Sequence record: MK047718.1
DNA length: 64,000 nucleotides
From: Escherichia phage p000y
Direction: 5' to 3' (one strand)
Below, in pieces: positions 7,058-17,274 of this stretch. Under the pieces are notes generated by a model. The model had not been told where the DNA came from, searched no databases, and was given only the letters and a program-made list of their open reading frames with translations. The position numbers were made by a program, and so were the translations under genes. The first letter of the stretch is position 1. Every line of letters starts with the position of its first letter.

Positions 7058-8500
7058 GTGGTAGAAATTATTTTGTCTCATCTAGTATACGACCAGGCTT
7101 ATTTTTCTAAGGTCTGGCCTTATATGGATTCTGAGTATTTTGAGCGTGGACCGGCAAAAAATGTCTTTAAAATTATAAAGAGCCACGTTAACGAATATAA
7201 TGCAATGCCATCTATCAATGCGTTAAAGGTGGCTTTAGATAACAGTTCTTTAACTGAAGCCGAATATAAAGGAACTTCAGACCTAATTGAAAAATTGGCT
7301 GATACTCCTGAAGACCATGAGTGGTTGGTTAAAGAAACTGAGAAATATGTCCAGCAAAAAGCGATGTATAATGCTACATCCAAAATCATTGAGATTCAGT
7401 CTAATGCTGAACTACCTCCAGAACAACGTAACAAGAAAATGCCTGACGTAGGAGCTATTCCTGATATTATGCGTCAAGCACTTTCAATTTCGTTCGATAG
7501 TTATGTTGGACATGACTGGATGGAAGACTATGAAGCACGCTGGCTTTCTTATCTAAATAAAGCACGTAAGGTCCCGTTCAAATTAAACATTCTTAATAAA
7601 ATCACCAAAGGTGGCGCAGAAACAGGTACACTGAACGTTTTAATGGCCGGTGTTAACGTTGGTAAATCTTTAGGCCTTTGTTCACTTGCTGCAGATTATC
7701 TTCAAACAGGACATAATGTTCTTTATATTTCCATGGAAATGGCTGAAGAAGTTTGTGCTAAGCGTATAGATGCAAACATGCTTGACGTATCACTCGATGA
7801 TATCGATGATGGTAACGTATCTTATGCTGAATATAAAGCCAAGATGGAAAAATGGCGTTCAAAAACAACATTAGGACGTTTAGTAGTTAAACAGTATCCT
7901 ACTGGTGGAGCTAATGCTAATACATTTCGTGCATTGCTTAATGAGTTAAAACTTAAGAAGAACTTTGTGCCATCTGTAATCATGGTTGATTACTTAGGTA
8001 TTTGTGGGTCTTGTCGTATCAGAGTTTACACTGAAAATAGCTACACATTAGTTAAAGCTATCGCAGAAGAACTTCGTGCATTAGCAGTAGAATCTGAAAC
8101 AGTTCTATGGACTGCAGCTCAAGTAGGACGTGCAGCATGGGATGCTTCAGACATGAACATGAGTGATATCGCAGAATCGGCAGGTTTACCAGCAACGGCA
8201 GATTTCATGTTGGCTGTAATTGAAACCGAAGAACTTGCACAAGCTGAACAACAACTTATCAAACAAATCAAATCACGATACGGCGATAAGAATAAGTGGA
8301 ATAAATTCCTGATGGGTGTACGTAAAGGCAATCAGAAATGGGTTGAGATTGAGCAAGAAGGCATGAACACACCTAACACAGTAAATGAAAACGCAGGTGC
8401 TCAGATGCGTCAGGCAGAGGTGAATCGTACGGAACGCGTAGGTAAAGCCAAAGCAACACGTGCTGACCTAGATAGCTTAGCCAATGAGTTAAAATTTTAA
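7058..8500 (+). CDS. 41: gp41 replicative DNA helicase
   Basis: MVEIILSHL..., Walker A GVNVGKS, C-terminal LANELKF match T4 gp41. GTG start with AAGGAG SD at 7047-7052. Confidence 0.97.
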   Translation: MVEIILSHLVYDQAYFSKVWPYMDSEYFERGPAKNVFKIIKSHVNEYNAMPSINALKVALDNSSLTEAEYKGTSDLIEKLADTPEDHEWLVKETEKYVQQKAMYNATSKIIEIQSNAELPPEQRNKKMPDVGAIPDIMRQALSISFDSYVGHDWMEDYEARWLSYLNKARKVPFKLNILNKITKGGAETGTLNVLMAGVNVGKSLGLCSLAADYLQTGHNVLYISMEMAEEVCAKRIDANMLDVSLDDIDDGNVSYAEYKAKMEKWRSKTTLGRLVVKQYPTGGANANTFRALLNELKLKKNFVPSVIMVDYLGICGSCRIRVYTENSYTLVKAIAEELRALAVESETVLWTAAQVGRAAWDASDMNMSDIAESAGLPATADFMLAVIETEELAQAEQQLIKQIKSRYGDKNKWNKFLMGVRKGNQKWVEIEQEGMNTPNTVNENAGAQMRQAEVNRTERVGKAKATRADLDSLANELKF

Positions 8501-8505
8501 TAAAA

Positions 8506-8527
8506 AGGAGACTTCGGTCTCCTTTCG
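8506..8527 (+). terminator. rho-independent terminator, C(UUCG)G tetraloop
   Basis: AGGAGAC-TTCG-GTCTCCT then TTCGGGGTTT, just after the gene 41 stop. Confidence 0.6.
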
Positions 8528-8530
8528 GGG

Positions 8531-8559
8531 TTTACATCTTCCTCTAGGCATGATATGAT
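8531..8559 (+). promoter_or_regulatory. T4-type early (sigma-70) promoter
   Basis: -35 TTTACA 8531-8536, 17-nt spacer, -10 TATGAT 8554-8559. Upstream of ORF 8589. Confidence 0.6.
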
Positions 8560-8588
8560 GAACTTACACCAACCAAGAGGAAAACATT

Positions 8589-8963
8589 ATGAATATGTCT
8601 CAAGCAATTTTTACTGCAATCACCGAAAACACAACTGTTGAAGTAGTTTCTCCACTGGCAACCTACGTTATTCTTGCTCCTAAAACTATTGTATCTCGTA
8701 TGGAAAACATGGGCAAACGTATCGTACAAATAGTTGGAGCTGGAAATCAAAAACTTGATTATCTACGAACCATCAAAGCTTATGAACATTTCCAACTCGA
8801 AAAAGGTTCTCCTATCCAGGTAGAACTCGTAAATGGTGATATCGTTCGAGCAATGTTCCATCATTTCTATGCATTGAATGACCCATCTAAAGCGGTTCGT
8901 TTAATTGCATACGACGCAAACCAAAAAGAAATCAACGCAGATGTATCTAAATTACGTTTTTAA
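8589..8963 (+). CDS. hypothetical protein (124 aa)
   Basis: Early promoter at 8531-8559 and AGAGGA SD upstream. No recognisable family. Confidence 0.6.
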   Translation: MNMSQAIFTAITENTTVEVVSPLATYVILAPKTIVSRMENMGKRIVQIVGAGNQKLDYLRTIKAYEHFQLEKGSPIQVELVNGDIVRAMFHHFYALNDPSKAVRLIAYDANQKEINADVSKLRF

Positions 8964-8964
8964 G

Positions 8965-9012
8965 TTTACTTCTCCAGTAGTTGTGTTATTATAGACCTAT
9001 CAACTACTGGAG
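8965..9012 (+). promoter_or_regulatory. early promoter embedded in a 12-bp stem-loop
   Basis: -35 TTTACT 8965-8970, -10 TATTAT 8987-8992. Perfect inverted repeat CTCCAGTAGTTG (8972-8983) / CAACTACTGGAG (9001-9012); the 3' arm contains the SD GGAG of ORF 9019. Confidence 0.65.
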
Positions 9013-9018
9013 AACAAA

Positions 9019-9336
9019 ATGAAAACCATCGATTGTAAAGCAGAATTTAAGATTTTTTATCACGGTTCAAGTAGTTCAGCTAACATCGAAAACATGCTTT
9101 GTCCTCCTGAGGAAACAGGAGTTCTGTCTGAAACTGGACGTAAGAAAAACTTGGATCGTGTATTCTTTACTGAAGATATCGGTTTAGCAAAGATTTATGC
9201 AGGACGAGCGGCACGCTCTTATGGAGGTGAACCACGTCTCTATCGAGTAATTTCTCCGGTAGACGTAGTTCAAATGAATAATACTAAAGGTGCTACAGTT
9301 TATCACGCTGAATGGGCATTTTGCGAGGAAATATGA
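9019..9336 (+). CDS. small Arr (rifampin ADP-ribosyltransferase)-like protein, candidate ADP-ribosyltransferase
   Basis: 105 aa. FYHGSS...(30 aa)...RVFFTEDIGLAKIYAGRAA...GEPRLYRVISP follows the Arr pattern FYHGT...YFS...A.WGAELA...G.IY.VEP as I recall it. It has its own early promoter in a stem-loop. Confidence 0.35.
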   Translation: MKTIDCKAEFKIFYHGSSSSANIENMLCPPEETGVLSETGRKKNLDRVFFTEDIGLAKIYAGRAARSYGGEPRLYRVISPVDVVQMNNTKGATVYHAEWAFCEEI

Positions 9337-9521
9337 GCAAATTAACTAAAATTACTTTTATTGGCTGGTTTAAAAGCGGTGAGATGTTCACTAAAGATAT
9401 CATGTTATCAGGTGATCGTGAAGAAATCGAGTGGGTTGCGGTACAACTTGCTGAAGTAAACAATGCATTAGTTAAAGCATTTATTAATGACGAGAAAGTT
9501 TTTGAAGCAGATTTTCGATAA
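9333..9521 (+). CDS. dmd: Dmd, antitoxin against RnlA/LsoA-type RNases
   Basis: MSKLTKITFIGWFKSGEMFTKDI...AEVNNALVKAFINDEKVFEADFR aligns with T4 Dmd (..VFMGWFKNESMFTKEI...AEVNKALVKAFIDDKKV). ATGA overlap with the upstream stop, GAGGAA SD. Confidence 0.85.
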   Translation: MSKLTKITFIGWFKSGEMFTKDIMLSGDREEIEWVAVQLAEVNNALVKAFINDEKVFEADFR

Positions 9522-9535
9522 TTTTAAAATAACTG

Positions 9536-9564
9536 TTTACAAGCACCGCATACTGTGTTACTAT
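9536..9564 (+). promoter_or_regulatory. early promoter
   Basis: TTTACA 9536-9541, 17 nt, TACTAT 9559-9564. Confidence 0.65.
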
Positions 9565-9592
9565 CTTTCTATCAACTACAGAGGAAATTGAA

Positions 9593-9961
9593 ATGAAAAA
9601 ATTAATCGCTTTAGCAATGGTATTTGGATTAACCGGATGTGGTGCCCACGGCTTTATCCCTAATAACGTTGGCCAACTGATTTACAATCCGAATGTTAAA
9701 CAGTACGACCAACCTAAAGTTGAAGTGGAAGATCCGGTTACTGTAGGTAATCGAATGATTCAAGCTGATGCTCATGCTCAACGTTATCGTGATTCTGATA
9801 CTGTAGCATTGTCAAAAGAACAACGCGTTAAAGAACATTGTCTACAGGCTACTGAAATCGCATTCATTCGCTATGTTGAAACAACTGGTAAAGAGCCTAC
9901 CCAGAAACAAATCGCGAATAACTACGTCCAGTGTATTGAACGTTTAAACAAATTTAATTAA
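9593..9961 (+). CDS. lipoprotein (122 aa)
   Basis: Signal peptide MKKLIALAMVFGLTGC with lipobox LTGC. Own early promoter at 9536-9564. Confidence 0.7.
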   Translation: MKKLIALAMVFGLTGCGAHGFIPNNVGQLIYNPNVKQYDQPKVEVEDPVTVGNRMIQADAHAQRYRDSDTVALSKEQRVKEHCLQATEIAFIRYVETTGKEPTQKQIANNYVQCIERLNKFN

Positions 9962-16026: not shown

Positions 16027-16608
16027 ATGACATGTCAATCTGAACTTCAAGAACGTGAATACCTAACAAATCTGATTGATAGCAAATTCACCCGCCAAGA
16101 ACAAAACATTCTCTGGGCTTGCACCGATTCTAAGGAAGACCCAGATTTCCACTATGAATTAGACCATCTTGTTCGTAAGCATATGACTTCTACAGTACCA
16201 GTAGAACTCTACCGTGGTGTAACTCCAGAAGAAGTAGAACGTCTTTCCCTTCTTTCTGTTGGATGCCATTGGTCTCCTGGACGAGTAACATCGTTCACAA
16301 CTGATTTCGGTACGGCTCGTCAATTCTCCGGGAGATGGGAATATCAGACGTACACTATTCTTAGTCTCAGGAATGCTCCATTCATTTTTGATTACTACCA
16401 AAACATGGTTAACATTGTACTCGCCGGAAAGAACCCTAAACATGTTATGGAAGAAACGCGTGTTGACGTCTTAGATATGATTGAATCTGAACAAGAGTAC
16501 ATGGTCTCAAGTATCTCTAGATTTGAGATTGTGGAAATTGAAGACTTAGAATATGACCCTTTATCTCGATTATACAAAATCATTCATTTGAAAATGTTGA
16601 ATTTTTAG
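16027..16608 (+). CDS. modA: ModA-like ADP-ribosyltransferase
   Basis: R-S-ExE ART triad: ELYRGV, VTSFTTDFGTARQF, ESEQEYMV. First of two adjacent paralogues upstream of srd/dda, as in T4. Confidence 0.75.
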   Translation: MTCQSELQEREYLTNLIDSKFTRQEQNILWACTDSKEDPDFHYELDHLVRKHMTSTVPVELYRGVTPEEVERLSLLSVGCHWSPGRVTSFTTDFGTARQFSGRWEYQTYTILSLRNAPFIFDYYQNMVNIVLAGKNPKHVMEETRVDVLDMIESEQEYMVSSISRFEIVEIEDLEYDPLSRLYKIIHLKMLNF

Positions 16609-16665: not shown

Positions 16666-17274
16666 ATGTTTATGCCGTATAACGAGTGTGAAATTGAAGA
16701 AATGGTTCGTCGTGCTCAAAACCCTGAATATCAAGATGAATTGCAGTATGAAATTGATAGTCAATTCAGTGACATTGAACAAAGTGTACTGTGGCGGTGT
16801 ATGGAAAACAAGCCAGACTGTATTCAACAGGAGTTAAGTTCAATCGTTCGTAGAAATTGGACGTCTTCTGTTCCTGAGACAATGTATCGTGGAATCTCTA
16901 AGAAAACTATGGCCGCACTCGATGATAAAGGCATTGGTAGTATTATTAAATTTGACAGAGTAATGAGCTTCAGCCCAGTGTTCGGTGTAGCACGTAACTT
17001 TGCTTCGTATAATTTTTACGGAACATTTAATATGTTCTGCATCAAAGATGCACCATTTGCTTTCAACTTCCGTGAACATATGCTTAACATGATTCTGGCT
17101 GCGCCATCTTGTGAGTTCAATGGAGCTTTCCCTGAAGCGACAAGACGGTCTAATGCTAGACTTATATCCGACGAATGTGAATTTATGCTCCCTATAGGGA
17201 CTACACTGCGTGTAGATTCTATTATTCAAGATGGACGTTATACAATCTGGAATCTGTCTATTGTCAGTTACTGA
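16666..17274 (+). CDS. modB: ModB-like ADP-ribosyltransferase
   Basis: R-S-ExE triad: TMYRGI, VMSFSPVFGVARNF, SDECEFML. Paralogue of the preceding gene. Confidence 0.75.
   Translation: MFMPYNECEIEEMVRRAQNPEYQDELQYEIDSQFSDIEQSVLWRCMENKPDCIQQELSSIVRRNWTSSVPETMYRGISKKTMAALDDKGIGSIIKFDRVMSFSPVFGVARNFASYNFYGTFNMFCIKDAPFAFNFREHMLNMILAAPSCEFNGAFPEATRRSNARLISDECEFMLPIGTTLRVDSIIQDGRYTIWNLSIVSY

Follow-up and report, generated by a model that had tools for sequence, protein, structure and literature searches.

T4 encodes three ADP-ribosyltransferases (ARTs), Alt, ModA, and ModB, which act at the onset of infection and are textbook enzymes of host takeover. All three are R-S-E clade enzymes of about 200 amino acids (aa) or more. 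Smaller described relatives of the fold include the rifampin ADP-ribosyltransferase Arr, a single-domain enzyme (PF12120; PDB 2HW2, 9IAF, 9IBA), and AcrIF11, found in phages and plasmids, whose target for ADP-ribosylation is the type I-F Csy complex (PMC12421852). We analyzed a 64,000-nucleotide stretch of Escherichia phage p000y (MK047718.1; below, the window), in which a 105-aa open reading frame (ORF) just ahead of dmd encodes a protein 100% identical to RB69ORF040c (NP_861730.1). From sequence and profile comparisons, we predict this protein to be a minimal, single-domain ART-fold protein belonging to an unnamed sister family of Arr.

The prediction of an ART is not in itself new, since orthologs in phages HX01, Phynn, Kimel, DLP1, SemperBestia, VR5, MX01, and IME281 already carry the name "ADP-ribosyl transferase" in GenBank, RefSeq, or UniRef, and since Iyer et al. 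(2022) probably also describe the family as an ART. Literature searches returned no experimental work on RB69ORF040c or on an Arr-like phage ART. The family belongs to a known superfamily, as an uncharacterized, divergent, and minimal member, and does not represent a new kind of system. It escaped study because T4 lacks the gene, which is conserved in hundreds of T4-like phages, many of them candidates for phage therapy. If the prediction is right, the protein would be a fourth and structurally different ART of T4-like phages and would define the minimal catalytic core of Arr/Tpt1-like ARTs.

Fold and relationship to Arr

The ORF is a real gene, far beyond what chance would produce. It matches its PHROG family (function not assigned) over the full length (E 6.9e-60, residues 1–105 to profile positions 1–105 of 105), and tblastn finds orthologs in 609 phage records, whose hosts include Escherichia, Klebsiella (116), Acinetobacter (68), Aeromonas (62), Enterobacter, Cronobacter, and Vibrio (14), among others. 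The identical 105-aa protein occurs on 157 contigs, and pairwise dN/dS values (nonsynonymous over synonymous substitution rates) between genera of 0.05–0.2 show strong purifying selection. Window positions 8500–9600 match RB69, HX01, p000v, and other phages at 98% nucleotide identity, and we assign them to an RB69-type Mosigvirus segment.

An AlphaFold2 model based on 26 aligned sequences (predicted local distance difference test [pLDDT] 83, predicted template modeling score [pTM] 0.76) contains the split β-sheet ART/NAD-binding fold. Searched with Foldseek against the PDB, it has a sole confident match, which is Arr (9iaf; prob 0.99, TMq 0.59); in BFVD, the third-ranking match comes from a phage, has 94 aa, and bears the name "Rifampin ADP-ribosyl transferase" (38% identity, TMq 0.73). 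The predicted structure is thus an ART fold, with Tpt1 and Arr as its closest solved relatives.

By sequence, the link to Arr is seen only in profile–profile and transitive searches. Searching 1.84 billion representative sequences with a profile of the T4-like subfamily recovered 222 relatives, many of which are domains within large proteins. Pfam calls the homologous segment of these large relatives PF12120 Arr-ms, with 25 of 41 multidomain relatives matching at E ≤ 1e-3 and several distant relatives scoring above the gathering threshold of 25 bits (26.9, 27.5, 29.4, and 29.7). When the extended family (142 sequences) is compared with an Arr alignment by HHalign, the match probability reaches 97.0% (E 1.3e-10, 68 columns), and the global alignment gives 96.6% over 90 columns. 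The same comparison with the NAD lobe of Tpt1 gives Prob 40.7 (E 2.9e-4), for a small Tpt1 alignment of four sequences. By sequence, then, Arr is the sister of this family; by structure, the NAD lobe of Tpt1 is just as close to it. We regard the fold and the homology to Arr as solid.

The HHalign alignment places window residues 11–84 on Arr-ms 15–82, pairing H15 with Arr H19 and V-F49-F-T with Arr I-Y49-I-T. For the Arr residues H19, Y49, and D84, we use what we take to be the numbering of Baysarowich et al. (2008); it agrees with the Arr sequence in the PDB. Four motifs are common to both proteins: [FY]-x-H-G-T/S, S-x-E-x-G-R (S-x-E38-x-G-R41 in the window protein, visible by eye in Arr as S-N-F-E-A-G-R), [IV]-[YF]-[IF]-T, and G-x-x-x-[IV]-[YF]-x-V-x-P.

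The first-pass annotation, made from the letters of the DNA, had described a 105-aa ORF with three Arr-like segments, and the translation contains them at residues 13–18 (FYHGSS), 48–65 (VFFTEDIGLAKIYAGRAA), and 70–80 (GEPRLYRVISP). The order of Arr motifs that it gave agrees with Arr-2 (PDB 9iba), which reads FYHGTKA ... HIYFSALMEPAVWGAELA ... GRGYIYIVEP, and the structure prediction that it proposed as a check returned an ART fold. Its Arr-like reading stands as far as the fold and the 97% profile match are concerned. It does not extend to a bona fide Arr: a match to the Pfam model, the C-terminal third, and a counterpart of D84 are all missing. The window protein is not above the PF12120 Arr-ms gathering threshold and in fact yields 0 Pfam matches even at E ≤ 10. 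Its last residue corresponds to about position 111 of Arr-ms, and its relatives match the Pfam Arr-ms model over positions 1–67 of 99 only, so that the C-terminal part of Arr (about 112–143) is absent and the protein is some 40 residues shorter at this end. Unlike Arr, it also has Phe in place of Y49 and lacks the insertion that carries D84, and nothing points to a rifamycin substrate.

The remaining described ARTs are more distant. Unlike Tpt1/KptA, the window protein has no N-terminal RNA-binding winged-helix lobe and hence no two-lobe architecture, its strand-2 residue is Phe instead of His, and the sequence-profile similarity is weak (Prob 41). Its H-aromatic configuration sets it apart from Alt, ModA, and ModB, to which it is unrelated in sequence. 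No sequence-level relationship to AcrIF11 was detected, and hosts and context differ.

Conserved residues and possible function

Residues H15, G16, E38, R41, A57, and Y60 are invariant across the family, and P29, P30, N44, V48, F49, T51, G69, G70, and G91 are nearly so. The strand-1 x-H-G-[ST] motif for NAD binding is present as Y14-H15-G16-S17, with H15 and G16 unchanged in 143 of 143 relatives, and the invariant Y60 is located on the helix after strand 2. This pattern is that of a conserved predicted NAD site with an atypical third position, reminiscent of Tpt1.

The reading that we favor, at slightly better than an even chance, is that of a predicted NAD+-dependent mono-ADP-ribosyltransferase, made only from immediate-early transcripts, that modifies a host macromolecule for takeover or counter-defense. 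NAD+ use, ADP-ribose transfer, and the target are points that we infer. Within the first minutes after infection, the enzyme would bind NAD+ and transfer ADP-ribose to a host protein or nucleic acid, serving host takeover, with Alt, ModA, and ModB as precedents, or counter-defense, with AcrIF11 as the precedent for a small stand-alone ART in that role.

The larger proteins in which relatives are found bear on this point. A related domain is fused to a lambda-type portal and a 2H phosphoesterase/Acb1-like domain, another lies inside a minor-tail (tape-measure-type) protein, and further fusion partners are ART-PolyVal, NUDIX, LPD23, CHAP, ddrB-ParB, GNAT, Toprim, PcfJ, and DUF7178. Such fusions are "polyvalent" effector proteins delivered with the virion (Iyer et al. 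2017; PMC5512222), and the presence of relatives within them speaks for an effect on host components from the outset of infection. Since the domain recurs in phage proteins co-injected with the DNA, knowing its target could bring to light a new host process or a defense system disabled by ADP-ribosylation. ART-PolyVal (PF18760), which shares its giant phage and conjugative-element proteins with relatives of the window ORF and sometimes stands next to them, is a distinct ART family. The T4-like phages have the ART gene in free-standing form, and the window protein is an early product, not part of a virion protein. The portal fusion is a 954-aa protein on metagenomic contig ERZ1426829 in which the lambda-type portal is followed by the Arr-like domain and then by the 2H phosphoesterase, which also scores as Acb1, directed against CBASS (cyclic oligonucleotide-based antiphage signaling system); this arrangement suggests a virion-delivered enzyme pair.

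Several observations weigh against a mono-ADP-ribosyltransferase. The window protein has no match in Pfam (E ≤ 10) or NCBIfam, a profile search has none among PDB sequences, and the T4-like subfamily taken alone reaches only 53–59% against Arr in HHalign (E about 1e-4). Residues 31–50, with the invariant E38 and R41, are modeled at low confidence (pLDDT 61–71). The strand-2 residue F49 is F in 139 and Y in 10 of 150 sequences, that is, aromatic but not the canonical Tyr or His. No acidic residue can be recognized as the third catalytic one: the window protein lacks the 4-residue insertion in which D84 of Arr is found, and positions 84 and 88 are variable, with no acidic residue conserved at either. 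We considered E103 as a family-wide catalytic Glu and rejected it; it is invariant only within the T4-like subfamily, and most wide-family alignments stop before it. The class of target, finally, is drawn wholly from analogy and context. As to the third position, Tpt1, of the H-H-h clade, functions without an acidic residue there, so that its absence is compatible with activity.

The missing acidic residue and the Phe in place of the strand-2 Tyr/His would fit a catalytic degeneration of the ART fold that leaves only a binder of NAD+/ADP-ribose or of a host protein, as a sponge or stoichiometric inhibitor, or else a simple NADase. Yet Y14-H15-G16-S/T17, F49, T51, and Y60 stay invariant or nearly so despite divergence to about 30% identity, a typical active-site pattern, and with the precedent of Tpt1 we hold degeneration to be quite unlikely. 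Chemistry like that of Tpt1 itself, with ADP-ribosylation of a terminal or 2′-phosphate on RNA (or DNA), seems to us unlikely. The protein would then remove 2′-phosphates in RNA repair or cap 5′-phosphate ends, and so help the phage against host defenses based on ribonucleases (RNases). Such chemistry would rationalize the position of the gene beside the anti-RNase gene dmd, but a protein of only 105 aa lacks the N-terminal RNA lobe that supplies the phosphate-binding residues of Tpt1, its sequence is nearer to Arr (Prob 97; the NAD lobe of Tpt1 gives Prob 41 with a small alignment), and charged residues counted by hand in the translation give no net basic protein; the 2H fusion, moreover, is a single case whose 2H domain also scores as Acb1. 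A small-molecule modifier in the manner of Arr, acting on a compound that, like an antibiotic, inhibits RNA polymerase or replication, or on a defense signaling nucleotide, would suit a small, soluble, single-domain protein whose closest sequence family is a small-molecule ART. We nevertheless find it improbable, given the loss of the C-terminal part of Arr, hosts (enterics, Acinetobacter, Aeromonas, and Vibrio) that are no rifamycin producers, and relatives embedded in injected polyvalent proteins, which point to host macromolecules as targets (PMC5512222). We also consider it unlikely that the family, at about 100 aa, is the smallest of the ARTs that stand alone, working with no acidic catalytic residue (possibly with the E38/R41 loop instead) on a nucleic-acid phosphate end or on an RNase-type or other defense component right after infection; were this true, it would be a fourth class of ART in T4-like phages and a counter-defense enzyme common to phages from Vibrio to Escherichia and to virion-injected polyvalent proteins.

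A different role has been published. Iyer, Burroughs, Anantharaman, and Aravind (Iyer et al. 2022; PMC9503650) describe a predicted ART "of the p0068 family" together with Dmd as a novel toxin–antitoxin system in Escherichia, Shigella, and Salmonella phages. Their description fits the RB69-type locus, with its predicted ART beside Dmd, and "p0068" may denote this family; the name does not match the locus tags of phage p000v. An ART toxin and a Dmd antitoxin of type II would agree with Dmd being a known antitoxin mimic and with the gene arrangement, as the two genes are adjacent in Mosigvirus, under one shared early promoter and with the ART stop codon TGA (9334–9336 in the window) overlapping the dmd ATG (9333–9335) as ATGA, and abut in Dhakavirus. 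The adjacency is, however, seen only in these two genera, which argues against such a pair. By tblastn, Dmd occurs in 800 records and is confined to Escherichia, Shigella, Yersinia, Salmonella, and Citrobacter phages, and most phages with the ART have no detectable Dmd, beside the ART or anywhere else; ART without Dmd is found in Slopekvirus, Pseudotevenvirus, Kanagawavirus, Tegunavirus, and Tulanevirus and in phages of Klebsiella, Acinetobacter, Aeromonas, and Vibrio. Conversely, T4 and the other T4-type Tequatrovirus records that dominate the dmd matches (about 575 bearing Dmd) lack the ART gene by tblastn. The identical ATGA overlap joins the ART to unrelated downstream genes. It overlaps sp in Tegunavirus, a 117-aa ORF in Kanagawavirus (PEi20), a small membrane ORF other than Dmd in Slopekvirus and Pseudotevenvirus, and a 157-aa ORF in Acinetobacter phage 133; in Aeromonas phage 25 it precedes 30.6. 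With host ranges that differ and other partners in the overlap, the ATGA coupling is generic to this slot and not a specific toxin–antitoxin link. A strictly lytic phage, besides, has no need to neutralize a toxin directed at its host. Our comparative data do not support obligate pairing, and we judge the published interpretation unlikely, with about the same low probability as a small-molecule modifier.

Signals upstream of the gene

The region upstream of the ATG contains candidate expression signals (Table 1). The T4-early-type promoter has 9 of 12 consensus matches plus the TG. The consensus scan is by itself nonsignificant in AT-rich DNA (7 sites versus 4.1 ± 2.0 expected); the arrangement GTTTAC-17-TAT(T/C)AT, though, precedes the ART ortholog in four genera, Mosigvirus, Dhakavirus, Tegunavirus, and Kanagawavirus. 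Transcription would start at about 8999–9001.

The inverted repeat at this promoter is strong as RNA, with a folding free energy (dG) of −25 kcal/mol for 8970–9014 (z −4.99; none of 200 shuffles is equally stable). Its 5′ arm sits between the −35 and −10 elements, upstream of the predicted start, and holds CTCC (8972–8975), which is complementary to the Shine-Dalgarno (SD) sequence included in the 3′ arm. The pairing of anti-SD with SD is retained and covaries across genera, being mostly TCTCC/GGAGA and in PEi20 TCCTC/GAGGA. Because transcription would begin downstream of the anti-SD arm, only promoter-proximal transcripts would expose the ribosome-binding site. Immediate-early RNA from the gene's own promoter would thus leave the site open, and in read-through RNA from gene 41/ORF041 it would be sequestered by the hairpin; dmd would be cotranscribed with the ART and translationally coupled to it through the ATGA.

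In T4, an early promoter just upstream of dmd drives the dmd-tifA pair (PMC9391042). In the window, the promoter ahead of the ART takes over this role, and dmd is the second gene of the ART's early transcription unit. The first-pass annotation had proposed an early promoter proper to the gene, a stem-loop that masks its SD in read-through RNA, and an ATGA overlap with dmd. The promoter site is present in an arrangement conserved across the four genera, the hairpin exists and the masking model fits the sequence data by comparative inference, and the overlap is confirmed, with the downstream ORF identified as Dmd.

Table 1. Features of the ART locus and related genes in the window
Feature	Coordinates	Strand	Details and basis
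T4-early-type sigma-70 promoter (candidate)	8964–8992	+	−35 GTTTAC 8964–8969; 17-nt spacer; TG 8984–8985; −10 TATTAT 8987–8992
Inverted repeat/hairpin, 14 bp	8970–9014	+	5′ arm 8970–8983 pairs with 3′ arm 9001–9014
Shine-Dalgarno GGAG	9009–9012	+	Sequence; 6 nt ahead of ATG
Predicted Arr-related minimal ART-fold protein, 105 aa	9019–9336	+	ATG start; RB69ORF040c; phrog_2110
dmd (antitoxin against RnlA/LsoA)	9333–9521	+	Pfam PF17587, E 1.5e-19; phrog_2102; RB69 annotation
AdfA (anti-DarT factor A), 216 aa	10630–11280		Pfam PF23813, E 8e-120
ModA/ModB-like ART (R-S-E)	16027–16608		phrog_832; beside srd
ModA/ModB-like ART (R-S-E)	16666–17274		phrog_832; beside srd

Two further hairpins are of the terminator-like type. 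One, CTCCTGAGGAAACAGGAG with a T-rich tail, was found by scanning inside the ART ORF (9104–9121); since 1 such site was found against 1.1 expected, it is probably due to chance, and we set it aside. The other is a GC-rich hairpin with a T run that follows gene 41 in Tegunavirus and Kanagawavirus, about 30–60 nt upstream of the ART promoter; in the window, this slot is occupied by ORF041.

Neighboring genes and distribution

The gene order in the window is gene 41, ORF041, ART, dmd, imm.1, imm, sp, adfA, and then 61.1 and 61, with imm.1, imm, and sp assigned by synteny with RB69. This gene 41-to-61 stretch is an island of counter-defense and exclusion genes, as the first-pass annotation had suspected in placing the ORF in an anti-defense neighborhood, and the ART heads an early operon within a known counter-defense island (dmd, tifA in RB69, imm, sp, and adfA). 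AdfA, a countermeasure against a host DNA ART, is encoded only 1.3 kb from the putative phage ART. The window also holds two ModA/ModB-like ARTs, homologs of the T4 enzymes that lie 7 kb downstream and directly ahead of srd; the earlier count of a third ART in the window thus holds, and the ART-fold ORF is unrelated to these two.

At the downstream end of the unit, dmd runs directly into imm.1 in the window (9521–9593), where RB69 has 61.4 (tifA, the ToxN inhibitor) in between (locus L001, 5026–5238). The direct succession implies that the window lacks tifA, as does phage p000v, whose Dmd is 100% identical to that of the window.

Upstream, the ORF041 homolog (8589–8963, 124 aa) belongs to phrog_10668, with no function assigned, and matched no Pfam or NCBIfam family. 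It has a promoter-like site of its own, TTTACA-17-TATGAT (8531–8559). In Mosigvirus, ORF041 lies between gene 41 and the ART; Dhakavirus, Tegunavirus, and Kanagawavirus lack it and have the ART directly after gene 41. In Slopekvirus, Pseudotevenvirus, and Tulanevirus, the ART is found not after gene 41 but a few genes upstream of srd.

The annotated length of the gene varies among records: it is given as 80 aa in the BASEL phages Bas47 and Bas46 and as 149 aa in Shigella phage Shf125875, which are probably start-codon misannotations of the 105-aa protein.

Related loci found with a family alignment are mostly on phage contigs within bacterial assemblies, together with two homologs from bacteria of the Candidate Phyla Radiation (CPR/Patescibacteria; loci L021 and L022), at 47%–49% identity. 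The CPR homologs appear to be true cellular copies and not phage contamination. One of them, on the Candidatus Kaiserbacteria chromosome OY969413.1 (L021, 3902–4348), is 148 aa long with an extended N-terminus and adjoins an ORF whose translation, judged by eye, looks transposase-like.
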